This document shows positions 755 to 14,973 of a stretch of DNA of 18,049 nt, in pieces. The notes beneath the pieces are model-generated. The model worked only from the letters and a program-made list of their open reading frames with translations. It did not search any database and was not told the origin of the DNA. Source of the DNA: a virus; UHGV virus genome UHGV-0118719. The stretch is one strand, 5' to 3'. The position numbers and the translations under genes were made by a program. How positions within the stretch are numbered: position 1 is the stretch's first letter; every line of letters starts with the position of its first letter.

Positions 755-793
755 CCGCCGCTCATTCTTGCATACGATGGGCGGCGGATTTTT
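755..793. terminator. rho-independent terminator after the dinI-like gene; also sits at the 3' end of the convergent tail-fibre gene
   Basis: 11-bp stem ccgccgctcat (755-765) / atgggcggcgg (777-787) with one G-U pair and an 11-nt loop, followed by ATTTTTC. Confidence 0.55.
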
Positions 794-1995
794 CAGCTTC
801 CAGGCCGCAACGCATCGAGCTTTTTCTTTAAATCTTCAACTTGCTGCATTAAAGCCAGAATCGCTTCATGATGTAGCGCTGCCGCAACGCCGTAAGTATC
901 TGGAGAGAGCACTCCTTCCACCACAGTTCCATCTGGGAGTTTACGATCACCCCCCTCAGTTACTGCTTGCGGGAAAACGTTCTTAACATCCTGCGCGATA
1001 AATCCTATCCCCCATTGTCCGGTATCTTTTCTCGTCCACGAGCAACCTTTTAGCATTTCCATCTTTTTGAGCGGGTCCTCAATTCTGGTCACCCCATCCT
1101 TCAGGCGGCCATCTGAATTCGGAACCCAAGCGCCAGGTGCTACAGCGTTGCCATTTAATTTAATAAAGCTCCAGTTGGTTCCTGAACTTGCGTTTGCTAC
1201 CTGAATATTCCCTGTTAAAGAACCATCCGCAGCCATTTGGGAGTAAAGGGCGCACACAGCAGCATCCGTTCCGTTGGCCCACCGTAGCAGGGAACGAATT
1301 AAACCGCCGACTGATCCTTCAGTTACCGTTGGTTGCGTATAACTCGTAATACTTCCATTAACTGCACCGCCAGTTTTCTGATCGATAGTATTTAATCTTG
1401 TATCGTTACCTGCAGCCACCGTTCCCGCTGTTGCGCCAATGTCTCTCGTGGCACTGTTTCCCAAACCGAGGCTTGTGCGAGCACCTGATGCGGTTGTTGA
1501 ACCGGTACCGCCCTGTCCAACAGATAGCGCTGTCGTGAGTCCGCTGAGCGAAGTAATATCGCTGTTTGCACCTTTTGCCGCCTTGCCTGAAAGTGATGTA
1601 GTAATGCTATTCCAGGCTGGGCCCGTCCATGTCGTTCCATCCGGCAGTGTTACTGTTACATTGCCGGTTCCAGAAAAAATGCTTTGCCAGTTCTGTTTGT
1701 CGTAATTCAGTCCTCGCAGCGCTTCAGCACTTTGCGCCACCAGCGCGGCAGTTACCATGTTCAGAGCCACACGGGGAACCGCTGACCAGGCAGCGCCGGC
1801 CTGAGTAGGGCCGGTAAAGTTGCTGACCAGCGTAAGCTGCGCATTACTCTCTACAGATTTTACGGGCAATGTATACGACACGCCGCCAACAGTAGAGACA
1901 ATAAAATCACCTGCAGCGAGTTCAGTTGCGAATGAGGTTCCGGAACCGCCAACAATAGCGGACCCGTTTGTCAGGGTGATGGTGCCTGCCGACAT
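793..1995 (-). CDS. tail fibre protein with C-terminal S74-type intramolecular chaperone (autoproteolytic) domain
   Basis: 400-aa ORF; AGGAG RBS (2002-2006, reverse complement) 6 nt before the ATG; N-terminus MSAGTITLTNGSAIVGGSGTSF typical of tail-fibre anchors; Gly/Ser/Thr-rich middle; the last ~107 aa begin SDGRLKDG..., resembling the SDxRLK start of endosialidase / T5 pb1 chaperone domains. Confidence 0.8.
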   Translation of the reverse strand: MSAGTITLTNGSAIVGGSGTSFATELAAGDFIVSTVGGVSYTLPVKSVESNAQLTLVSNFTGPTQAGAAWSAVPRVALNMVTAALVAQSAEALRGLNYDKQNWQSIFSGTGNVTVTLPDGTTWTGPAWNSITTSLSGKAAKGANSDITSLSGLTTALSVGQGGTGSTTASGARTSLGLGNSATRDIGATAGTVAAGNDTRLNTIDQKTGGAVNGSITSYTQPTVTEGSVGGLIRSLLRWANGTDAAVCALYSQMAADGSLTGNIQVANASSGTNWSFIKLNGNAVAPGAWVPNSDGRLKDGVTRIEDPLKKMEMLKGCSWTRKDTGQWGIGFIAQDVKNVFPQAVTEGGDRKLPDGTVVEGVLSPDTYGVAAALHHEAILALMQQVEDLKKKLDALRPGS

Positions 1996-3074: not shown

Positions 3075-3376
3075 TATGCCTTCTCCATAAAAACGATCAG
3101 CTCACATTTCGAGGCCGGATAATTACCAAGCCCAGTGTCAGATGCGGACGTCACAGTTATTGAGTTACCTGATGCAACTATTCTTCGCCCTACGCTGTTA
3201 CCTCCTTCATCAAGAGAAACAACAAAACCAACTTTAAAACCTGTGGGCACAGTGAAACTCCAAGAACCTGAGTTCTGACCTGCTGCAAGTGGAATGCGGC
3301 CTACTACCGATACTGGTTTAATGCCATAGTTATTAGGCCTTCCGCTGGCATCCCATGTTTGTATTCCCCATGACAT
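3074..3376 (-). CDS. hypothetical protein (100 aa), first of two coupled post-J ORFs
   Basis: ATG at 3374-3376 overlaps the J stop by 1 nt (TGATG); AGGAG RBS 8 nt upstream, inside the end of J; WDASG motif. Confidence 0.6.
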   Translation of the reverse strand: MSWGIQTWDASGRPNNYGIKPVSVVGRIPLAAGQNSGSWSFTVPTGFKVGFVVSLDEGGNSVGRRIVASGNSITVTSASDTGLGNYPASKCELIVFMEKA

Positions 3377-6300
3377 CAGAATACTCCTGTCAGTTTTCCA
3401 ATCTGTACGCGCAGGACGCCGTTAGCATCCCTTATGCTGTCAGTAACATTCGTTGTCTTTCTTGCGCCCTGCCCGTCACTGCCATAGTTTTCCCAAGTGC
3501 CACCTTTATCCAGTTTCCATCCAGATTGCCCGGCAACGTAATTGTTGGACTGGATAAAGTTACCGATTTTGGCATTGGTGATCGTGCCATCCTGAATAAA
3601 CGCTGAGCTGATAAACACCTGACCGTTTACCACCGCGAACGGCGAATACTGGGTATCACCACTGCCGCTCATCAGCACGAACTGGTTAGCGTTGAAACCA
3701 ACCCGCGTGACTACCGGCTTCCCTGCCTCTGCAAGCACTGCAATAGACATCCCGGCGTTATAAATCACCCCGTTTATTCTCACGCCCGTTTTGAGGGTGT
3801 GGATTGCCGAAGCACCGGAGGCATCTACGACAGCTGTAAGCTTGTCTTCCAGGGAAGCGGTAACATCCTCAATCTGCGCCTGCACCTGCGTCGAAAGTTC
3901 GGCCATTGCATTATCAACTTCAGCAATCGTCGTTTTAACCACCAGAATATCGGCACGCACTTCTCCGTATTGTGCCCACTGGTGCTCAACAGTTCCATGG
4001 TTCGCCAGGGCGTTCTGCAGTATTCCCTCAATGTTGGTATCGATGTCACCAGTCAGGCGTTCTCCGTCTGCAGAGGTTAGGAAATCATCTGCGATATCGC
4101 CCAAATAATCATCGGCGTTATCGTTAGACATCCCCCTGATCCAGTCGGTATACCCGGACTCGTTACCCGTTCTGTCGACCAGCTGCGCGCGGTACCAGAA
4201 TTCCTGCCCTGCTTTAAGGCCGAGCTGGGTGTATTCCGCAGATGGATAAGGCACGTCTGAGAGCAAGAGTGGATCTGAAAAGTCACTGTTGGCAGTGTAC
4301 TGAATTTCCGTTTTTAGCGTATCGCCGGTGTTTGCCGGGAAACCCCAGTTAAGACGAATCCCCCAGTTAATGCCCGTGGCTGTGAATCCTACTGGCTTAG
4401 GCGGATTACCTACTTTGCCGGTCAGTGTCTTCTCTTCTGAATATCCCCATCCTGAGGAAATTTCAGCGGCATTAATTGCGCGCACGCGCACCAGGTAGCG
4501 CCCGGCATAAATCCCCGGGACGTCAAATGACGTGGTGGAGCTGCGAGGCATGTTCACCCAGTTTCCGTCGTTGCGGCGCCACTGCCCCTCATAGGCGATA
4601 GCGTTCTGCGCCTGGTCCCAGCTCACGCGCATCGTTTCGACGCTGATATTCTGCTGAACAACCGAAAACGAACTGATCGTGATGTTGGCTGGCGGGGACT
4701 GATTACCGGGCGGAATTACACTTATTGGCCGCTGGTCGATGATGGCGCCGGTATCGATACGGGCATACTTATCCGGATCGTGAAAAGCACCAGTAATCGA
4801 AAACGTGCCGTCGTTATTATCAGCGACGCTGATAACACGATATTGCTGTGCATAAAGCTCGTCGGATTCGACAATCCATACCGATTCGACTGCCGGTGTT
4901 TCGCTGTATGCCGTGGTCACGGTGACAGCCCGACCGTTTACGCTCTGTATCGTCCTGCTCTGCGATGCGCCAGACGGCAGGTTAACCATAAGACGGCTTC
5001 CGGCAACGGCTGCGGAATCACGATCAAGCGTGATAACGCGACCATTAACCGCGCTGATACGCCCTCCCATCACCTTTCCGGATAACAGATCATCGGCAAC
5101 CGCGATAATATAACCAGGCTGCGGAATGTTTCCGTCCAGCCCGACATCAAACGAAACAACGCGATCCTTGTTATTGGTGAGAATACCCCAGCGCCCCTTT
5201 CGGTTCGCCTCTGACTGCCTGGTGCAGCCGATGGCTGTCATTTCCAGCTGATTGAAGCCGTACCGCGCCACCAGCGCCTGCTCAAATACCGGCTCCATCG
5301 CGTCGGCATAAGCGTTACCCGGGTCTGACCATGAAACCAGCGCTGTGGTGTAGCGGCTTTTCGTGGTGCTGCTCGAATAGGTGAAGCGACCGCCAACAAC
5401 GTTAGCGCGCGTATAGCTGTAATCAACATCGCGCGGCATGTCAGCCAGGGCCACAATCTGATCCCCGCCCCAGTAGGTCATGCCACGGAAGATAGCGGCA
5501 AAATCACGCAGGACTGTGTAGGCGTCGTTCCGGTCCTGAATGTACACGTTGCAGGTATAGCGTGGTTCTGTACCGTTGCCCCCTTTGCCGTCTGGTACCA
5601 TCTGATCACAATACTGAGCAACCTGATAAAGCGTCCATTTATCAATATTCGCAGCGGTCAAACGGTGCCCAAGGCCGAACCGGTCAGAAACAACCAGGTC
5701 GTAAAAAATCCACGCAGGGTTATCCGTCCATGCCCACTTAAACGCACCGGTCCATGTACCGCTATAAGTGCGGGTTTCAGGGTCGTAGGTATCTGGAACG
5801 CGGATAACGCGGCCGCGCGGTTCGCATGAAATTTGAGGAATAGAGCCGTTGAACTGGCTTGAGTCGAATTCGACGTAGAGCAGCGCGGTGTTCGGGTAGC
5901 GCAGTTTGGCGTCAATCACCTCGGTGAAGCTCTGCAGCATCATCGTGTCGCCGATCTTCGCGCTGTTGGCGTCAGAGGTAATCTTACGCAGACGTATTGT
6001 CCATGTGCTGCCAGCCTGCGGTAAATCGATACGGTGGCTGCGCTCATAACCAGACGTCGTTTTGCCGGTCACGCTGGTATTGAGTACCGTCTGCCATGTG
6101 CCGCCGTCAGTCTGCAGGTCAATCGCATAATTGACCGAGTAACCCACCAGATCGCCGTCGTCTTCCTGTTTGAAAAGCGAGGGCCATTTAAGACGCAGGC
6201 GAACTGCTGAAAGCTGCGTATTGGTAAACGTGCGCGTCCAGGCTGTGGCACTTGATACCTCAGTTCCTACGCTGATCTCGTTTTCGGTACCGGGAATACC

Positions 6301-6561
6301 CTGAATATATTTTTGCGCCTGCGTTCCCGCGCGAAACTCCCACGTTACCCCGCTGAAGTTTTGGGAGCCGTCAGCATTCTCCAGCGCTGTTCCGTCCAGG
6401 TAGATATCTTTGCCGGTGAGCTGTCCAGCAAACTCCCCTTCCCCAAGCGCAACGAGGATTTTTGCCTTCGCTACAGATTGCAGATCATCAGGCTGTTCGG
6501 TAGGGGTTCGGGAACTTGAGCTGCCGCCCTTGCGGCCTTTTAACACTTTATCTGTAGCCAT
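3376..6561 (-). CDS. J: tail tip / central tail fibre protein J (host specificity protein)
   Basis: 1061-aa ORF in the lambda J position after I; conserved lambda-J-like blocks in the central region (e.g. YPNTAL, WTLYQVAQYCDQMVPDGKGG..TEPRYTCNVY); N- and C-terminal regions diverge from lambda. Confidence 0.9.
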   Translation of the reverse strand: MATDKVLKGRKGGSSSSRTPTEQPDDLQSVAKAKILVALGEGEFAGQLTGKDIYLDGTALENADGSQNFSGVTWEFRAGTQAQKYIQGIPGTENEISVGTEVSSATAWTRTFTNTQLSAVRLRLKWPSLFKQEDDGDLVGYSVNYAIDLQTDGGTWQTVLNTSVTGKTTSGYERSHRIDLPQAGSTWTIRLRKITSDANSAKIGDTMMLQSFTEVIDAKLRYPNTALLYVEFDSSQFNGSIPQISCEPRGRVIRVPDTYDPETRTYSGTWTGAFKWAWTDNPAWIFYDLVVSDRFGLGHRLTAANIDKWTLYQVAQYCDQMVPDGKGGNGTEPRYTCNVYIQDRNDAYTVLRDFAAIFRGMTYWGGDQIVALADMPRDVDYSYTRANVVGGRFTYSSSTTKSRYTTALVSWSDPGNAYADAMEPVFEQALVARYGFNQLEMTAIGCTRQSEANRKGRWGILTNNKDRVVSFDVGLDGNIPQPGYIIAVADDLLSGKVMGGRISAVNGRVITLDRDSAAVAGSRLMVNLPSGASQSRTIQSVNGRAVTVTTAYSETPAVESVWIVESDELYAQQYRVISVADNNDGTFSITGAFHDPDKYARIDTGAIIDQRPISVIPPGNQSPPANITISSFSVVQQNISVETMRVSWDQAQNAIAYEGQWRRNDGNWVNMPRSSTTSFDVPGIYAGRYLVRVRAINAAEISSGWGYSEEKTLTGKVGNPPKPVGFTATGINWGIRLNWGFPANTGDTLKTEIQYTANSDFSDPLLLSDVPYPSAEYTQLGLKAGQEFWYRAQLVDRTGNESGYTDWIRGMSNDNADDYLGDIADDFLTSADGERLTGDIDTNIEGILQNALANHGTVEHQWAQYGEVRADILVVKTTIAEVDNAMAELSTQVQAQIEDVTASLEDKLTAVVDASGASAIHTLKTGVRINGVIYNAGMSIAVLAEAGKPVVTRVGFNANQFVLMSGSGDTQYSPFAVVNGQVFISSAFIQDGTITNAKIGNFIQSNNYVAGQSGWKLDKGGTWENYGSDGQGARKTTNVTDSIRDANGVLRVQIGKLTGVF

Positions 6562-6571
6562 ATTGCGCCCA

Positions 6572-6595
6572 TAAAAAAGCCACCCAAAGGTGGCT
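6572..6595 (-). terminator. rho-independent terminator on the minus strand, ending about 10 nt upstream of the J start codon
   Basis: Plus-strand A6 then 7-bp stem agccacc (6578-6584) / ggtggct (6589-6595) with loop caaa; on the minus strand this is a hairpin followed by TTTTTTAT. Confidence 0.55.
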
Positions 6596-6726
6596 ACTGT
6601 CTGAATATCAGGATGTTACAAATCTAAATACCTGGTTATGTTGTGGATTCAGCCCGCCAGCGGTGGGACGCTGGTGAACTCATAACAGGTGGAATGGCTG
6701 ATTACCTCTGGAAAAAGGAGAAGTAA

Positions 6727-6987
6727 ATGGGTTCGATGTTAGAACTGGAAAAAGAAGTGGCAGAGCTTAAACAAAAGCTGCTTACGCATGAAATTGCAAC
6801 TGGCCTGATTCTATCGGACATTGTGAAATTACTGGACATTGCCCGGCCAGGCGCACTCGATGCTCTGACTAAAAACTATCAGGCAGGGCAAGCAAAAATC
6901 CCAGAATCAGCTGCACGTAATGATCCGCACACAATTGATGCGTTCACGCGCATCCTTAAAGTTTTAGAGGTGGCATCAAAGAAATAA
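6727..6987 (+). CDS. hypothetical small protein (86 aa) on the opposite strand to the tail operon; coiled-coil-like N-terminus
   Basis: AGGAG RBS (6716-6720) 6 nt before the ATG at 6727; AT-rich compared with flanking tail genes; 3' end overlaps the convergent minus-strand ORF by 32 bp. Confidence 0.5.
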   Translation: MGSMLELEKEVAELKQKLLTHEIATGLILSDIVKLLDIARPGALDALTKNYQAGQAKIPESAARNDPHTIDAFTRILKVLEVASKK

Positions 6988-7273
6988 TTAAATCGAGCTT
7001 TTCATTGAATATTTCTTCATGAGTTTTAGCGGCCTCATTCTGGGCCGCTGTTACCGTTCCACCGAAAACCCCTGCATCACCCTGCGAAATCTTTCCCTCC
7101 TTTACTCGCAAACTCCAGCCATTACCGGTGATGGTCGAATGAATAGCGCCACCTGGCCGTAGTGCGTTCTGAATGGCGGAATTGACGATTGCCGGGTTAT
7201 GCAGCTCTGCTATCTCCACCTGCAGGCTCGCGATGGTTGCCTCAAGCATGCTCATGCGCTCTTCTAAAGTCAT
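6956..7273 (-). CDS. hypothetical small protein (105 aa from the ATG at 7271-7273) between I and J
   Basis: AGGAG RBS 7 nt upstream of the ATG at 7273; the longer track ORF (to 7375) would overlap I and lacks an RBS; coiled-coil-like N-terminus. Confidence 0.5.
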   Translation of the reverse strand: MTLEERMSMLEATIASLQVEIAELHNPAIVNSAIQNALRPGGAIHSTITGNGWSLRVKEGKISQGDAGVFGGTVTAAQNEAAKTHEEIFNEKLDLIISLMPPLKL

Positions 7274-7310
7274 AGTTTTCTCCTGCCTATCAGCTAATAA
7301 GTTAATTAAT

Positions 7311-7901
7311 TTACTGTTGATCTTCGACATAAATTCCGGCAGAAATAATCGCTCCGCCGATTCGACGCTTACCATAAAGCAGAGGCACCGGGTACCCCTG
7401 TGCCGCGGTGTTTGTTACACCACCGAACGCGTATGAGGCGCGGTTATCTGAACTCTGTTTGCTGGCCAGCCCCGCTGGTTGAGGGGAAAGCATCTGAACA
7501 ACCCCGCCAATCATCATTGCGGCACCGAATTTGTATAAGAATGGTGATGCCGCAGCCCAGGGTGTGAAATTAAGCACCGCCCCAACGGCAACCAGAACTG
7601 CACCAAGTATTGTCTGGAGTAATCCGGCCTTTTTGCTCCCGATAATCACCGGGACAATCCTGACCACTTCACCAGTTACCGGAAAACCTAGGTCATCAAC
7701 TCCTATGTTTTTCTTTCCTTTAAAAATGGCAAAGGTTAGTCCGCGGCGCTTGCTGTTTACCATATAACTTTCAAACCCGGTGATTGTTTTTGCGAGTGCT
7801 ACACCTGCTTCAGAAACTTTACTGATAAGTCGCCAATGAGTTTTACCAAATATTTTACCGGGTTCGCCGCCGAGCTCAATTCGAGTCATTGCTTCAGACA
7901 T
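7311..7901 (-). CDS. I: tail assembly protein I
   Basis: 196-aa ORF; AAGAGG RBS 5 nt upstream; C-terminal half resembles lambda gpI (Gly/Ala-rich hydrophobic segment, then VLPVLYG-like block, here YPVPLLYGKRRIG). Confidence 0.85.
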   Translation of the reverse strand: MSEAMTRIELGGEPGKIFGKTHWRLISKVSEAGVALAKTITGFESYMVNSKRRGLTFAIFKGKKNIGVDDLGFPVTGEVVRIVPVIIGSKKAGLLQTILGAVLVAVGAVLNFTPWAAASPFLYKFGAAMMIGGVVQMLSPQPAGLASKQSSDNRASYAFGGVTNTAAQGYPVPLLYGKRRIGGAIISAGIYVEDQQ

Positions 7902-7959: not shown

Positions 7960-8373
7960 TCAAAATGCTGTAGGGTAGATACCAAAATCACCGTTGGTTC
8001 CGTAACCAACTCTAAACATCAAAACCCCAGTATCTGTCACCTTACCCGACTGTTCGCTCATGCCTCCGCCACACATACCTTTGGGCCAAGCGCTAAAGAT
8101 ATGATCTCCAATTTTGGGATAGACCGTTACCTTTTGAGCTGTATCTAAGTCTGCGACCTCCTTGCCATCAACATAAACTCGGGTCATGCAGGCGCTGCCC
8201 ATAAAACCAGAGTCTCGTTTGATTATTACCTTGCCAGTCCCTTCTTTTTTTACTAGCAGTGTATTGCTGATAACCTGTTTTGCAGGAACATCCTGTGCTT
8301 GTTCATTTGTCACCGGCTTAGTTGCACAACCGGCAACCATTAAGATGGAGGTAAAAACTAAAATTCTTTTCAT
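7960..8373 (-). CDS. lipoprotein of unknown function (137 aa), accessory gene between K and I
   Basis: ATG at 8371-8373 preceded by AAAGGGGA; signal peptide MKRILVFTSILMVAGC with lipobox VAGC; the longer track ORF start at 8493 was rejected. Confidence 0.65.
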   Translation of the reverse strand: MKRILVFTSILMVAGCATKPVTNEQAQDVPAKQVISNTLLVKKEGTGKVIIKRDSGFMGSACMTRVYVDGKEVADLDTAQKVTVYPKIGDHIFSAWPKGMCGGGMSEQSGKVTDTGVLMFRVGYGTNGDFGIYPTAF

Positions 8374-8461
8374 ATCCCTATCCCCTTTGGTCAATTTTGC
8401 CAAAAGAGTAGCAGGGATCGAGCGGTAGCAAAACCGAATGTTATCTTGGTTCACGCGCCCT

Positions 8462-8971
8462 TTAAATACCGGGGAGATACATCTGTACTTCATCAGCTAC
8501 ACGCTCCCGTGCTGTGTGTAGAAGCCGCTTGCGGCCACCAACACCCCACTTGGCCATCTGGCTGGCGCACTGGCTGATCGCTTTGGTTTCGGTGTTAATC
8601 ACATGGTCGATTTTATTCAAGCGAGACATGGCATCGAACCCGCGACGCATTAGCATTTGAAATGTCTCATAGACTTTGATTTCAAAAAGCGGATTGAGCC
8701 AGGCTGCATAGCGTATAGCGATAAGTTCAAGCCCCCAGGAGCCCTGAAATGGTCCCCCCTTAATTGTCATAACCGATGCGATTTTCTTCGCATCGCTCAA
8801 GGCTTGAACAAATCGCCTTACTTGCTTGGTTTTGAGAAACTCACCTGGTCGCTGTGATTCAGTGGCTTTGCCTTCAGCCACCGCTGCGGCGTGGAGATCA
8901 TTAAGATTATAACGTCCTTCGTTATCGACACGAACTGATACGCCGTTTACAGATACGGTTGGATATTGCAT
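8462..8971 (-). CDS. KilA-N domain protein (169 aa)
   Basis: N-terminal ~110 aa fit the KilA-N/APSES-type pattern (V..VR.D.EG...L.DL......, GG.FQGSWG.ELIAIRYAAWLNP.FEIKVYE); ATG at 8969-8971 with AAGG RBS; inserted where lambda has no gene. Confidence 0.65.
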   Translation of the reverse strand: MQYPTVSVNGVSVRVDNEGRYNLNDLHAAAVAEGKATESQRPGEFLKTKQVRRFVQALSDAKKIASVMTIKGGPFQGSWGLELIAIRYAAWLNPLFEIKVYETFQMLMRRGFDAMSRLNKIDHVINTETKAISQCASQMAKWGVGGRKRLLHTARERVADEVQMYLPGI

Positions 8972-9136: not shown

Positions 9137-9847
9137 CTATAGAAGCGTTTTATATCTGACGATCTTCATCGTCCTTTCCTGCCAGTAGCCACCATACGGC
9201 ACGCGCTGGCTCAGATGTCCGTACAGGTGGTGCAGCAGCATATTTCCCTCCAGCAGAATTCCCGCGTGGTTCCACTTATCAGCCTGGACCTGCATGATCA
9301 CCATATCGCCGGGTTTCGGTGGCCCGTCGAATTCCCGGAAACCGCACTCATACCAGCAATCCTGATAGAAGTTGTCCGGATATTCGTTTTCCCACCAGGG
9401 ATAATCAACCCGGTAATCGTGGAGTTCGATACCATGCGTTTGCCGAAAATAGCTCATTACCAGCCCCCAGCAGTCGAAGTGTCCAAGCACAAACGGACGC
9501 TCCAGCAGCGGCAGTTCTCCGCGCGGCTGGATGGTGCGTAAATCCCCCTCCGGCCAGCTCACAATATGCCAGGGTAAAAGCGTTGCGTCGCATTGCGCTT
9601 TATCCAGTTCGCTCGGTTGCGTTGTGGCGTCAGGGTGACTGTGAACGATGGCGATCACCGTACCCCAGTCCTCAGCAGCGGCATAGCCTTCTGGCGACAG
9701 GTGAAAATGTTCTGTCGGCTCGGTAGCGAGGTTACTACATGGAAAATATTTCTCTACCCGGCTCTTTTGCGCCACCACGCCGCAACACTCACGAGGATAT
9801 TCAGCTGCAGCATGCGCCATAATCGCATCGATGGTTTTCTGACGCAT
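9137..9847 (-). CDS. K: tail assembly protein K (N-terminal MPN/JAMM-like, C-terminal NlpC/P60-like)
   Basis: 236-aa ORF that matches my recollection of lambda gpK over essentially its whole length (MRQ.TIDAIMAHAAAEYPRE.CGVV..., HSHPD motif, HFDCWGLV). Confidence 0.95.
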   Translation of the reverse strand: MRQKTIDAIMAHAAAEYPRECCGVVAQKSRVEKYFPCSNLATEPTEHFHLSPEGYAAAEDWGTVIAIVHSHPDATTQPSELDKAQCDATLLPWHIVSWPEGDLRTIQPRGELPLLERPFVLGHFDCWGLVMSYFRQTHGIELHDYRVDYPWWENEYPDNFYQDCWYECGFREFDGPPKPGDMVIMQVQADKWNHAGILLEGNMLLHHLYGHLSQRVPYGGYWQERTMKIVRYKTLL

Positions 9848-10953: not shown

Positions 10954-13470
10954 TTACCTGCGATTGGTCGCATTCCAGATAAGCCCACCGGGCTGGATTG
11001 CCCTGGCGATACCATCGTTGACAGATTTGTTAATCACCTGCTGATACGCCTTACCCAGCCTGTCTCCGTCGTTTTGCTGCTGTGCGTTACCGGAAGCATT
11101 CTCGACCGTCACCGGGGCATATACACTGACACCGAAAGGTGCTGCAGCCGGGCCTGTACCACCGCCCCCGACATACCCACCCGTGGCATACCCTTTCATC
11201 ATCCGGTAAAGATTGCCGACGCCGATCCGGCTGGTAGCCTCTTTGGTGAAAACAAATTCACCACGGTGAACGACACCTGCAGGTTCATATTTCCCGCCTG
11301 AACCGGTATAACCGCCACCTGCAAATCCCAGCGCGGTTGTCGCTGAATCCACCAGGCCTACCATCGCCTGTTTCAGCAGGATCTGTGTCAGCATGGAGAG
11401 CGTGGAGCGGGTGAAGTCAGCCCAGTCAGCCTTTCCGCGCGTCAGCATGTCAGCCATATTTTGCCCGATGCCATCAAACGCACTGGTGGCAGCCGACTTC
11501 ATCTGGCCATAAGCATCTGAAGCAGAATCAACATAATCTGCCCATGCGGATTTGGCTCCGGACTGCCAGTCGTCCCGCAGCTTATCCTGCTCGGCGTAAT
11601 ACGCCTGCAGCGCCTGCAGCTCATTCTGATAACCAGCATCGTTCTCCGAACCACCACCATTTTTCCAGCCCTGAAGAAGCTGGGCCTCTTCATTGCGACG
11701 TTGTGCTGCACGACTGCTCATACCAGCACTTTCCGCAAGGGCTCGGGTTTTCTCGCCGATCTGCGTGACGTATTTTTGGGACGTATCCTGCAGGCGATTA
11801 AGCCGCTCCTGCGCCACTATCTGATCGCCGAGCTTCGCATTCAGCTCCGCACGGGAAAGCACCTCACTTTTACTGGCCAGCAGGGATTTTTCCTCAGCAG
11901 AAAGCGTTCGGGTCTTCGCGGCCTCTTCCAGAACCGTAAAGCGGGACTGCTGACGCCACAGCTCCTGACGCTGCTGGCTGATGGTGTCATTGATGCTCTT
12001 ATGCTCCTGCAGGGTGCGCAGCTGTGTCTGTAGCTCCAGCGTCTGGGCACTGGCCGTATCGGTGGCACGGGCACCTGCGGGGGTTCTGATTGCCGGGGTC
12101 TTCTTCGGCTTTTTAAGGGTGTCTTCGTACTCTTTTTTCGCGGCAGCCAGGTTGATGTTGTAGTCAGCCTGGAGGATCCGCCCCTCTTTCAGCGCCTTGT
12201 TGAGCTCGCTCTGCCTGGCCGTGTATTTCTCCAGTGCCGTCTGCGTTTTGGCATAGTTTGCCTGTGCCTGCGCAGCATACTTCTGGCGATCCGATTCCGC
12301 AGCCGCTTCGCGCGATGCATTCTCTTCGTTCGCCCTGGCAATTCCCGCCTGCTGCTGCGCCATATCCAGCGCAAGCCTGGCCGTTTCGCGGTCATTCCAG
12401 AATCGGGCGCGAGCCTCATCATTGACATATCGGTCACCTTTACGCAGGTTCCAGATTTCATCAGCTTTTTTGAACGCGGCTTCGGCTTTTGCCACCATCT
12501 CCTGCGCGGTGTCAGGTCGGCCAATATCGAGGGCTGCATCCCACATCGACTTGAAGGCGCGCTTCAGGGAGTCCGCTGAAGACTCTATCGTCCCCATATT
12601 GTCGCGGATGGCTTTGGTCTGATCGTTGAATCCGGCTGTAGCCGCCTCGTTAGCCGCCTGCAGTGCGCCAGCCTCATCACCGGCACGCTGCAGCTGCGCC
12701 ACATGGGCAATCTGTTCTGCGGTAACGTTATGGAACTGCTGGGCCATCGCGATCAGGCCCGATGTCGGGTCAGTTGCGAGCTTGCCGTAGGCTGCAGCGA
12801 CTTTCTCCACCGGCACGCCGGAGGCATCAGTAAACCGCGCCACCGCCTGGCTCATTTCATCAAAGCGCGAGCCAGTACGCACACCTGCATTGATAAGCTC
12901 GGTCAGGGCTTCACTGGTCTGGTTGAACGTTAGCCCCGCTGCCTGTCCGTTCCGCGCCAGTGCCAGCATGCGGTCAGCTGTCAGTCCGGCTGTGTTCCCC
13001 GACAGTACCAGCGTTTTGTTGAAATCAGACAGAGTGGAAGAGCCCTGGTACCAGGCATAGAACAACGCGCCCGTTGCAACGGACAATGCACCAATGCCGA
13101 CCATCAACGGGGAAATCGTCCCCAGCAACGCCCGGAATGTCGGAATGATCCCGCCAAAGGAGTCCTTAACCTGACCGCCCTGCTGAAGCAGAATCAGCCA
13201 GGGGTTCTGCCCACCCGCCAGCTGCGTGGCCACGTCAGTAAACTGCGCCGGGAGCATACGCATCGCTGCGTTATACTGACCCACTGAAATACCGGCCTTA
13301 CGCGCGGCGTTCTCCTGGCGGCTGAAGGACTGCTGGATACGTAACGCTTCATCGTTTGCCGTATTGCCGGTCTGTTTTAATTCTTTTTTGACGTAGCTGA
13401 GCTGCTCGTTGAATTTTGTCGAGTTAACGTCAAGGTTAACGACCAGATCACCGACTGCCGTCTGAGCCAT
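10954..13470 (-). CDS. H: tail tape measure protein H
   Basis: 838-aa ORF; long blocks match remembered lambda gpH (GISVGQYNAAMRMLPAQFTDVATQLAGGQNPWLILLQQGGQVKDSFGG, YEPAGVVHRGEFVFTKEATSRIGVGNLYRMMKGYATGG); start overlaps the T stop by 23 nt. Confidence 0.92.
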   Translation of the reverse strand: MAQTAVGDLVVNLDVNSTKFNEQLSYVKKELKQTGNTANDEALRIQQSFSRQENAARKAGISVGQYNAAMRMLPAQFTDVATQLAGGQNPWLILLQQGGQVKDSFGGIIPTFRALLGTISPLMVGIGALSVATGALFYAWYQGSSTLSDFNKTLVLSGNTAGLTADRMLALARNGQAAGLTFNQTSEALTELINAGVRTGSRFDEMSQAVARFTDASGVPVEKVAAAYGKLATDPTSGLIAMAQQFHNVTAEQIAHVAQLQRAGDEAGALQAANEAATAGFNDQTKAIRDNMGTIESSADSLKRAFKSMWDAALDIGRPDTAQEMVAKAEAAFKKADEIWNLRKGDRYVNDEARARFWNDRETARLALDMAQQQAGIARANEENASREAAAESDRQKYAAQAQANYAKTQTALEKYTARQSELNKALKEGRILQADYNINLAAAKKEYEDTLKKPKKTPAIRTPAGARATDTASAQTLELQTQLRTLQEHKSINDTISQQRQELWRQQSRFTVLEEAAKTRTLSAEEKSLLASKSEVLSRAELNAKLGDQIVAQERLNRLQDTSQKYVTQIGEKTRALAESAGMSSRAAQRRNEEAQLLQGWKNGGGSENDAGYQNELQALQAYYAEQDKLRDDWQSGAKSAWADYVDSASDAYGQMKSAATSAFDGIGQNMADMLTRGKADWADFTRSTLSMLTQILLKQAMVGLVDSATTALGFAGGGYTGSGGKYEPAGVVHRGEFVFTKEATSRIGVGNLYRMMKGYATGGYVGGGGTGPAAAPFGVSVYAPVTVENASGNAQQQNDGDRLGKAYQQVINKSVNDGIARAIQPGGLIWNATNRR

Positions 13471-14199
13471 AGCGCACGCCTCCTGAAATACCTGCAGCCT
13501 TCGCCATCAGCGTATCGTCATCCGGATCATCGATGTCGATGGCTTCCGGTGCAGAGGAAAGAATGCTGAAACTGTCCGGGGTTAACTCCGGATCGGCAAA
13601 AAACAGGGTTGAGATGGTGTAGAGCAAGCCGGAGAAATGTGCGTCCAGCTGCGCATCATGAAAGTAATTGTCCTGGTAGAAGATTTTCCAGTCGCCGTAC
13701 TCCGTAGAGGACATGCCAGCAAGCATGGCACGCCAGTCCGGGCGACCGAACTCACGCGCCAGTTTCATGGCAAACTTCAGCTCACTGGCGAGGGCTTTTC
13801 CGCAGTAACAGGTTCAGCGGGTTCATTACGTTCTTCACCGGGCTCAGCCTGGTCATCAGTGACCGGCGCAATCATCCCGGACAGGAGTTTCACCTTATAT
13901 TCGGCTTCGGCAACCAGTTCGGTCGGCCATGACTGCATGACCTCATCCTGAATCTTTGCCACTTCCGCCGCCGCATTTTCTCCCTGGGAGCCTTTCAGTT
14001 CGTGGCCGTGCCAGAGTGACATCGCCACGAGGAACGCCCCACTTTTTACGGTGAGGGTGATGGCCGCCTGAAAATCGCCAGCTTCAACTGCCTCCAGCTG
14101 CTTCAGGTATTCGAGGTATTCAATACGCTGAAGCGCCGAAAGCTGGAACAATGTGACGCTGCTGCCGTTGCATTCAAGAAGTTCGCTCTTTAGAAACAT
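13448..14199 (-). CDS. T: tail assembly chaperone G-T fusion, made by a programmed -1 ribosomal frameshift near the end of G
   Basis: T-frame ORF (13448..13768, lambda-T-like MKLAREFGRPDWRAMLAGMSSTEY...) is in the -1 frame relative to G and stays open upstream through the G terminus to a stop at 13814-13816; slippery heptamer GGAAAAG at 13795-13801. Confidence 0.75.
13777..14199 (-). CDS. G: tail assembly chaperone G
   Basis: 140-aa ORF, lambda-G-like (MFLK..., GAFLVAMSLWH, PAEPV...S); GGAG RBS 5 nt upstream. Confidence 0.9.
   Translation of the reverse strand: MFLKSELLECNGSSVTLFQLSALQRIEYLEYLKQLEAVEAGDFQAAITLTVKSGAFLVAMSLWHGHELKGSQGENAAAEVAKIQDEVMQSWPTELVAEAEYKVKLLSGMIAPVTDDQAEPGEERNEPAEPVTAEKPSPVS
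13795..13801 (-). other. putative -1 frameshift slippery site G-GAA-AAG (G frame Glu-Lys), at the position of lambda's G-GGA-AAG
   Basis: The only homopolymeric heptamer inside the 11-codon window where the T frame is open and G has not yet terminated; five codons before the G stop, as in lambda. Confidence 0.55.
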
Positions 14200-14207
14200 A
14201 ATTACTC

Positions 14208-14232
14208 CGGGGGAACGGGGCTCGCGCCCCGG
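14208..14232 (-). other. GC-rich stem-loop in the V-G intergenic spacer
   Basis: cggggc-tcgc-gccccg (14216-14231), with alternative pairing ccgggg (14208-14213) / ccccgg (14227-14232); no U-tract. Confidence 0.3.
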
Positions 14233-14235
14233 TTA

Positions 14236-14973
14236 TCAGGAAACAGTGACTTTGCAGATCGCCACAAAGTTACCGTCATTGCTCATAACGATGATTTCGA
14301 CGGTGCCTGCCGCCACGCCGGTGACCGTCAGTGTGTTACCGTTAGCCGTAACTGTGGCTTTGGCCCGGTCAGCTGACGATACGCGGAAGGATTTATCTGA
14401 CGCACTGGCCGGAAGAACAGATACAACCAGTTGCACAGTTTCACCGACCGCAACAGCTGCAGTGGATTTATCCAGGCTGATCCCCGTGACAGCAATCGGC
14501 GCGGCACCACTGTCTTCTGCCAGTGATGGTTTGCCGTTGTTGGTGATTTTGGCCGTCCGGGTCATGACCTCTTTGGACGTAATGGTTTTACCGAGGCTGC
14601 TCACCCAGCCCTTAAACACATCGACAACACCATTTGGGTATTTGATTTTATATCCCCTCACGGTGCCCTCATCGAACCAGATCACAAGGTCCTGCTGACC
14701 GGAATCTCCCGGCATCCACGCGAGCGTCAGGTTGGTTTCACCGGCTGATTTCTGCCCCTGCATGGTTGATGTCCAGTCAGCATTCTCATCATCGATGTAG
14801 GTATCATCCTCAGATTCGGCGGTCAGTTCACCGGGCTGCAGGTCTTTAATCTTTGCCAGACGCAGCCAGTCAACATCTGAAAGCGGGTTGGCATAAGGGT
14901 CACCGGTTCCGGTGTAAACCCATAGGGTGGTACCAGCACCTTTTGTTGGTGCCAGCGGGTTTGGTGTGGCCAT
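14236..14973 (-). CDS. V: major tail tube protein V with C-terminal Ig-like (Big_2-type) domain
   Basis: 245-aa ORF; N-terminal two-thirds match remembered lambda gpV ([39 protein letters not shown]); C-terminal ~90 aa is an Ig-like decoration domain. Confidence 0.92.

Follow-up and report, generated by a model that had tools for sequence, protein, structure and literature searches.

The window analysed in this study, an 18,049-nt stretch of the virus genome UHGV-0118719, carries all of its tail genes on the minus strand, a detail left unstated in an earlier reading made from the letters alone, here called the sequence-only reading. Two overlapping open reading frames are located between the genes for the major tail protein and the tape measure protein. 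The V homologue, encoding the major tail protein (14236-14973, minus strand; Pfam Phage_TTP_12, 2.4e-70, together with Big_2), lies directly upstream of G, the 0-frame gene for a 140-aa tail assembly chaperone (13777-14199, minus strand; taken from the ORF list), whose product matches the full Phage_TAC_2 profile (8.1e-52). Pfam and a check of the frames identify the first of the two ORFs as a chaperone of the lambda type and the second as a homologue of T in the -1 phase. The H homologue, encoding the tape measure protein (10954-13470, minus strand; Pfam TMP_2, 3.2e-72, and Tape_meas_lam_C), follows, with its start overlapping the end of T. The remainder of the minus strand constitutes a lambda-like head and tail module.

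G terminates at a TGA (13777-13779, minus strand; ORF list) and its 3' end reads ...GTT ACT GCG GAA AAG CCC TCG CCA GTG AGC TGA, so that the translated protein ends in ...PVTAEKPSPVS*. Frame translations place a TGA of the -1 frame at 13814-13816 (minus strand), which forms the 5' bound of the shift window, and show this frame to be open from 13813 to the stop at 13448-13450. Since the -1 frame is open only from 13813, the overlap is 37 nt long and takes in the final 11 sense codons of G together with its stop codon; the sequence-only reading had reported the T frame to be open over these 11 codons, and the translations confirm it. The only A_AAG site in the 37-nt overlap belongs to the slip heptamer G-GAA-AAG (13795-13801, minus strand), which specifies Glu134-Lys135 of G. 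These are the same codons, 134-135 of the 140-aa protein, at which lambda has G-GGA-AAG, in agreement with the position given in that reading. The T segment after the slip (13448-13795, minus strand; GCC CTC GCC...) translates into 115 aa followed by a stop and matches Pfam Phage_tail_T (1.7e-12), and the predicted GT fusion joins 135 aa of G to 115 aa of T, giving 250 aa. Counted over the whole window, GGAAAAG occurs at chance level, with three copies found and 2.9 expected; the signal is the phase of the heptamer, its place inside the 37-nt overlap and its conservation, not its count. The V-G-T-H order and the Pfam families fit the lambda-type G/GT arrangement that had been proposed for this locus, and N15 annotates the same heptamer. 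Judged from its sequence and gene order, the site is very probably the GT frameshift site, orthologous to the programmed -1 shift of lambda G/GT. While the anatomy and the homology of the locus are directly observed, the occurrence and the rate of the frameshift are what we infer.

Several features of the surrounding module deserve description. In the V-G intergenic region (14200-14235), just after V, we found a GC-rich hairpin, CGGGGC-GCGA-GCCCCG (about 14212-14231, minus strand). The equivalent V-G hairpin is annotated as a putative rho-independent terminator in N15; the one in our window has no U-run and the terminator scan makes no call for it, and a promoter and terminator scan of 13300-14400 found neither element. 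The lambda order is broken by two additional genes (7960-8971, minus strand) that lie between K (9137-9847) and I (7311-7901). One encodes a 169-aa protein matching phrog_129 ('transcriptional regulator') and the other a 177-aa protein matching phrog_890 (lipoprotein), and together they look like a moron insertion within the tail operon. A further stretch of about 750 nt is present between I and J (3376-6561) in the region 6562-7375, and J itself looks complete. One ORF there codes for 139 aa (6956-7375, minus strand; phrog_22477, unknown function) and overlaps with the end of I; another, of 86 aa, lies on the opposite strand (6727-6987), also between I and J. Finally, the 400-aa protein encoded at 793-1995 (minus strand) contains a C-terminal Peptidase_S74 (endosialidase chaperone) domain and probably represents a side tail fibre that carries an autocleaving intramolecular chaperone.

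For a survey of the heptamer among relatives, we collected 52 IMG/VR loci by protein alone, 54 loci from species-representative genomes by family alignment, and 53 further loci from IMG/VR, which alone holds more than 590 G/T loci; three look-ups of proteins with unusual C-termini completed the set. Anchoring on the invariant GAYTGGCG located 63 nt downstream yielded 70 distinct 107-nt sites. GGAAAAG is present in 59 of the 70 and the lambda form GGGAAAG in seven, and each of the remaining forms was found at one site: GGCAAAG (L046), GGCAAAA (L098), AGAAAAG (L137), and AAAAAAG, a dnaX-type A-AAA-AAG carried by one Citrobacter lineage. AAAG is present in all sampled sites but one. The lambda heptamer is a minority form among the sampled relatives, and the description of GGAAAAG as a peculiarity of this phage in the sequence-only reading was overstated, as GGAAAAG is the majority form there. 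G-GAA-AAG persists even where the G proteins are just 33-56% identical to the one studied here, and its hosts include Trabulsiella, Kluyvera, Enterobacter, Buttiauxella, Citrobacter, Erwinia, Atlantibacter, Kosakonia, Leclercia, Serratia, Proteus, and Xenorhabdus. In every relative, the -1 frame is open upstream just enough to take in the heptamer. Two N15-like contigs (L113 and L114) carry GGGAAAG; their heptamer differs from ours by the G/A change alone, and their downstream context is otherwise N15-like with a few other base differences.

The survey also brought up loci with a different architecture. In Proteus (L100-L104), G ends with the heptamer itself (CTG GAA AAG TAG), in a Klebsiella sp. 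(L098) it ends CTG GCA AAA TAG, and in Xenorhabdus (L107) the stop codon lies one codon past the heptamer. The long-range helix described below is absent in this Proteus, Klebsiella sp., and Xenorhabdus group, and Proteus has a different hairpin, AUCCUGCG...CGCAGGAU, further downstream. In addition, the G gene of lambda itself (46% identical to G in our window, with GGGAAAG) turned up on short contigs of very low coverage in unrelated genomes, e.g., of Neobacillus, Kitasatospora, Shewanella, and Leeuwenhoekiella (L064-L076, L095, L097, L099, L103, and L108-L110). These contigs most likely represent lambda DNA contamination or spike-in.

The first base of the heptamer occupies the third position of the codon that precedes GAA, a synonymous site, and is untranslated in the -1 frame. 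It is a G in 55 of 56 distinct sequences despite a preceding codon that may be GCG, CUG, CCG, or GUG, and its entropy amounts to 0.13 bit, compared with 1.27-1.80 bit at the six third-codon positions just upstream. The lone exception among the 56 is the A of A-AAA-AAG, precisely the base that re-pairing requires there, and the larger set of 70 sites adds one real exception at this position, the A-GAA-AAG of L137. The near-invariance of this G argues for selection on the first P-site pair, which it would form with C36 of tRNA-Glu, and such selection is predicted by the mechanism put forward in the sequence-only reading. The base after the heptamer is likewise constrained and is a pyrimidine in 56 of 56 distinct sequences. 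Set against the canonical X_XXZ_ZZN pattern, the site has the ZZZN part, with A-AAG giving cognate re-pairing in the A site, and lacks the XXX part, the -1 codon GGA differing from the 0-frame GAA at position 2. Nor does it fit a site defined by the tetramer only, in which the bases 5' of Z_ZZN would be free, given that position 1 is constrained. Weak P-site re-pairing sites do exist in nature, namely A-GAA-AAG (L137), G-GCA-AAG (L046), and G-GCA-AAA (L098); four natural sites in which re-pairing in the P site is poor or the site is wholly different indicate that P-site pairing is not absolutely required. Taken together, we consider it probable that P-site re-pairing matters at this site, and tRNA-Glu probably does re-pair on GGA.

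The decoding argument of the sequence-only reading was sound. The slip from AAG to AAA keeps tRNA-Lys cognate, and placing tRNA-Glu on GGA with a mismatch in the middle (G opposite U35) matches the description given by Peng et al. (2019; PMC6924986), who studied AUG GAA AAG beside AUG GGA AAG in a reconstituted E. coli system. There, G GAA AAG was termed "unfavourable", with its second-position mismatch, and yielded mainly the 0-frame product, being less slippery than G GGA AAG (PMC6924986). The comparison with the lambda heptamer had further been recommended as a natural test of P-site re-pairing; the two sequences differ as was said, but the in vitro comparison has thus already been published (PMC6924986). 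Among -1 tetramers, A_AAG performs best in E. coli (PMC4066793). For G_GGA_AAG, Sharma et al. (2014) reported 0.28% frameshifting with the bare site; adding the IS911 stimulators gave 3.8% and the IS3 pseudoknot 43%, and the A_AAG tetramer was near background alone and reached 5.6% with a pseudoknot (PMC4066793). Lambda shifts at a rate of approximately 3-4% (PMC3296357; PMC5009743); its GT:G ratio is roughly 1:30, and an effect of tRNA modification on this ratio is reported for lambda (PMC3296357). These published rates suggest that a weak heptamer depends on its context if the shift is to attain a lambda-like level.

Folding of the RNA downstream of the heptamer, which had been recommended as a check for a stimulatory structure, indeed returned a very stable predicted fold. 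According to the MFE model, a 5-nt spacer, CCCUC (13790-13794, minus strand), separates the heptamer from a long-range helix that represents a candidate stimulator. Its 5' strand, GCCAGUGAGC (13780-13789, minus strand), would pair with the 3' strand GCUUGCUGGC (13715-13724, minus strand), located within Met-Leu-Ala-Gly codons of T; both strands are supported by the MFE fold, by RNAalifold on 30 relatives and by pair counts. The helix encloses a GC-rich inner hairpin (13727-13760, minus strand) in the MFE fold. The pairing of this interior is less certain, with 80.5% of cells paired, many cells unpaired and a different interior proposed by RNAalifold. The stop codon of G is placed in the junction of the predicted fold. 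With 5 nt, the spacer falls within the distance of about 5-9 nt at which the structures of dnaX, IS3, and IS911 begin. The 95 nt after the heptamer (13700-13794) fold with -46.7 kcal/mol, corresponding to z = -4.78 relative to dinucleotide shuffles. Among the 3591 windows of a minus-strand scan, the top rank falls here and the five most stable windows all overlap the region after the heptamer, which also beats 500 of 500 synonymous-codon shuffles of T (z = -3.25).

The unusual stability of this region is accompanied by real, though incomplete, comparative evidence for the helix. Across 44 distinct sequences, the closing helix is 87% paired, and over 30 diverse representatives it is 91.7% paired, compared with 26-47% when the partners are slid; RNAalifold on these 30 diverse relatives recovered it independently. 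The pair 13786/13718 (alignment columns 16/84) is A-U in 20 of 30 and G-C in 10 of 30 sequences and broken in none. It switches between A-U and G-C at least three times on the G+T protein tree, a number that may be smaller because mosaicism could move columns 16 and 84 together, and its mutual information ranks second among 5671 column pairs. Column 84 is a synonymous position of Ala or Ser codons, which is solely U or C and always matches its partner. The remaining pairs of the helix hardly covary, so that the covariation comes mainly from one pair. The distant group of Proteus, Xenorhabdus, and Edwardsiella lacks the closing helix, and RNAalifold on all 44 distinct sequences, this group included, gave no meaningful consensus. 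Several relatives are no more stable than their own synonymous shuffles, and lambda reaches only z = -1.5. In the lambda control, the region after the heptamer ranks about 222 of 4381 windows, showing that extreme stability is not general to the family. Searches for other elements were negative: no Rfam family was found in the window at gathering thresholds, with only chance-level matches around the site, and direct reading of the 14 bases that precede the heptamer, GAACCTGTTACTGC, revealed no GGAG, GAGG, or AGGA that could serve as the Shine-Dalgarno-like stimulator which some signals of the dnaX, IS3, and IS911 type carry 6-17 nt ahead of their heptamer. We also considered that a stronger structure might offset a weaker heptamer and rejected this idea, since the mean MFE is -38.7 kcal/mol for GGAAAAG and -40.4 kcal/mol for GGGAAAG at the same stop position, i.e., structure strength is independent of the heptamer type.

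The downstream ORF could in principle be translated alone, from the ATG at 13768 (ORF 13448-13768), without any frameshift. An ATG-started 106-aa ORF is indeed present, and HK225, mEp237, and PGAP annotate a distinct CDS from this codon. However, lambda and roughly half of the relatives have CTG at this position (columns 34-36: Met 30, Leu 32), so that a conserved start for the downstream ORF is lacking, and we reject independent initiation of T because ATG 13768 is not conserved. By direct reading, no Shine-Dalgarno-like sequence precedes this ATG, which moreover lies inside the predicted fold; the upstream extension of the open -1 frame, kept just long enough for the heptamer in every relative, and the HK225 note, which itself names the product 'GT', also speak against a separately initiated T, and we regard it as very improbable. 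It is even harder to credit that a G-to-A change killed a lambda-type slip site and that the prophage makes no GT. Such a loss would accord with the lower slipperiness of G GAA AAG relative to G GGA AAG in vitro (PMC6924986), but we exclude it because the isolated phages N15, HK225, and mEp237 share the identical heptamer, which also predominates in distant relatives whose ORFs are intact. Transcriptional slippage was considered as well and is not plausible on a run of four A. A more substantial alternative, which we nevertheless judge unlikely, leaves the protein product unchanged and concerns the tRNAs: tRNA-Lys alone might slip on A_AAG while it occupies the A site, or else from the P site with the following codon still to be decoded; tRNA-Glu would then not re-pair on GGA, and the G at position 1 would be incidental. 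The top rank of A_AAG among -1 tetramers in E. coli (PMC4066793), the IS elements reported to shift without P-site re-pairing (PMC5009743), the natural G-GCA-AAG, G-GCA-AAA, and A-GAA-AAG sites among the relatives, and the Proteus stop codon right after the heptamer, a context favoring a P-site Lys slip, all point in this direction. Yet a mechanism that depends on the tetramer only leaves position 1 unconstrained, whereas 55 of the 56 distinct sequences have G there, with any of four codons preceding GAA, and the only switch to A coincides with an AAA P codon. Slippage of tRNA-Lys alone is possible as a minor or parallel route because natural GCA and A-GAA variants exist.

The role of the downstream structure is more evenly contested. 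The shift may be real and the fold a by-product of the GC-rich, conserved T peptide (...KLAREFGRPDWRAMLAGM...) that stimulates nothing, an explanation to which we give nearly even weight. Protein-preserving shuffles are already very stable, averaging -33 kcal/mol where the strand as a whole averages -24.6 kcal/mol, many relatives do not exceed their shuffles in stability, and the lambda region is unexceptional in its own genome; structure strength is not tied to the heptamer type, and a review states that no stimulator seems to be involved. On the other hand, the sequence in our window outdoes all 500 of its synonymous shuffles, the helix begins only 5 nt past the heptamer, a compensatory change is seen at columns 16/84, and the synonymous sites within the helix vary little. 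Furthermore, Table S4 of Sharma et al. marks the lambda gpG cluster as having a conserved structure downstream (PMC4066793). On these grounds, stimulation of frameshifting by the modelled helix appears quite possible, if somewhat short of probable.

The explanation that we prefer, and hold with considerable confidence as a whole, combines the slip, the GT fusion and the context. Most ribosomes would read G through to its stop codon at 13777-13779, and a minority would slip back by one base at the moment when the P site holds GAA and the A site AAG. In the A site, tRNA-Lys (mnm5s2UUU) would move from AAG to AAA and pair at least equally well there; in the P site, tRNA-Glu (mnm5s2UUC) would re-pair on GGA via its first and third positions, leaving a central G opposite U35. 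The slipped ribosomes would then continue with GCC CTC GCC... and produce the 250-aa fusion ...PVTAEK|ALASELKFAMK..., which, by analogy with lambda, would form the link between tape measure protein and major tail protein. The heptamer is followed by a pyrimidine and, 5 bases on, by the conserved 8-10 bp helix predicted to close a very stable fold, and this helix may well lift the shift from the background level of a weak heptamer to a useful one. More tentatively, these features can be extended into a general proposal, namely that the usual site among lambda/N15-type relatives is the non-canonical G-GAA-AAG, with its first G selected for near-cognate re-pairing of tRNA-Glu and with a shift that depends on the helix. 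If true, this would contradict the common view that the GT shift of tailed phages needs no stimulatory signal. The helix-less relatives with a stop codon right after the heptamer would then suggest that two stimulatory contexts are interchangeable.

The value of these results lies mostly in annotation and experimental design. Searches for the canonical X_XXZ_ZZN cannot find the GGAAAAG site, though it is the commonest heptamer among the sampled G/T relatives, and the pipeline of Sharma et al. considered canonical X_XXZ_ZZN patterns only (PMC4066793). The heptamer GGAAAAG is not mentioned in PRFect or in a 2025 high-throughput preprint. In the E. coli SZQ1 prophage (L169), which is 98% identical to 13440-14210 of the window, the NCBI annotation treats T as an incomplete pseudo-CDS ('missing C-terminus'), with no ribosomal slippage modelled, and the records of HK225 and mEp237 annotate only the ATG-started part, under the name 'GT'. 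A search of complete E. coli genomes gave matches to the segment in 31 of 5426 genomes, the best at 98.1% and none of them exact. The relatives provide a natural series of heptamers in a near-constant context, consisting of GGAAAAG, GGGAAAG, AAAAAAG, GGCAAAG, and AGAAAAG. With this series and the candidate helix, the effects of P-site re-pairing and of a stimulator become measurable on a biologically tuned, low-level frameshift.

Among characterized frameshift sites, dnaX and IS3/IS911 have an X_XXA_AAG-type site followed about 5-6 nt on by a stable structure, as is the case here; those signals combine canonical heptamers with experimentally proven stimulators and are highly efficient, whereas the structure described here is a candidate. 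In B. subtilis cdd, an upstream Shine-Dalgarno-like element has been described; we see no element of this type in our sequence. The cdd site itself, CGA AAG, resembles ours in that it is a tRNA-Lys shift with a non-cognate P codon (Mejlhede et al., 1999, a title cited in PMC5009743), and the A_AAG sites of IS elements likewise show a -1 shift driven by tRNA-Lys without cognate P-site re-pairing (PMC4066793). Our site differs from both in the conserved base before the P codon, which suggests partial re-pairing in the P site. The model mRNA used by Peng et al. (2019) contains the same G GAA AAG but in a start-codon context and with no downstream structure (PMC6924986).

In lambda, G GGA AAG serves as the site of the G/GT -1 frameshift (Levin et al., 1993; Xu et al., 2004, 2013, as cited in PMC5009743). 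The two systems share the Pfam families, the A-site AAG, and a homologous T start, and the lambda slip likewise occurs at G residues 134-135, 5 codons ahead of the stop. Lambda reads GCG GGA AAG TGT TCG ACG GTG AGC TGA where our sequence reads GCG GAA AAG CCC TCG CCA GTG AGC TGA. The P codon is thus GGA (Gly) in lambda and GAA (Glu) here, and with GAA in place of GGA the heptamer is not an X_XXY_YYZ motif. The T part comprises 115 aa here and 144 aa in lambda, and the downstream helix has 10 bp starting after 5 nt here in contrast to 8 bp starting after 7 nt in lambda, where the fold is less stable.

N15 (genes 14/15, AF064539), HK225, and mEp237 have the same gene order and the same GGAAAAG as our window. 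Their G-T segments show 93-96% nucleotide identity to ours, and the site itself is unchanged, no base differing in the stretch that runs from 4 nt upstream of the heptamer (CTGC) to 24 nt downstream. The misc_feature 'slippery sequence for -1 translational frameshift' of AF064539 aligns exactly with GGAAAAG in our sequence, gene 15 of N15 is annotated as 'downstream half of translational frameshift product', and 236 of 250 residues are identical between the N15 GT product and the GT predicted here. Because the N15 record AF064539 marks the identical GGAAAAG as a slippery sequence, the finding is a re-discovery of the site annotated in N15: the observation made from the sequence is real, was correctly interpreted, and was already known.
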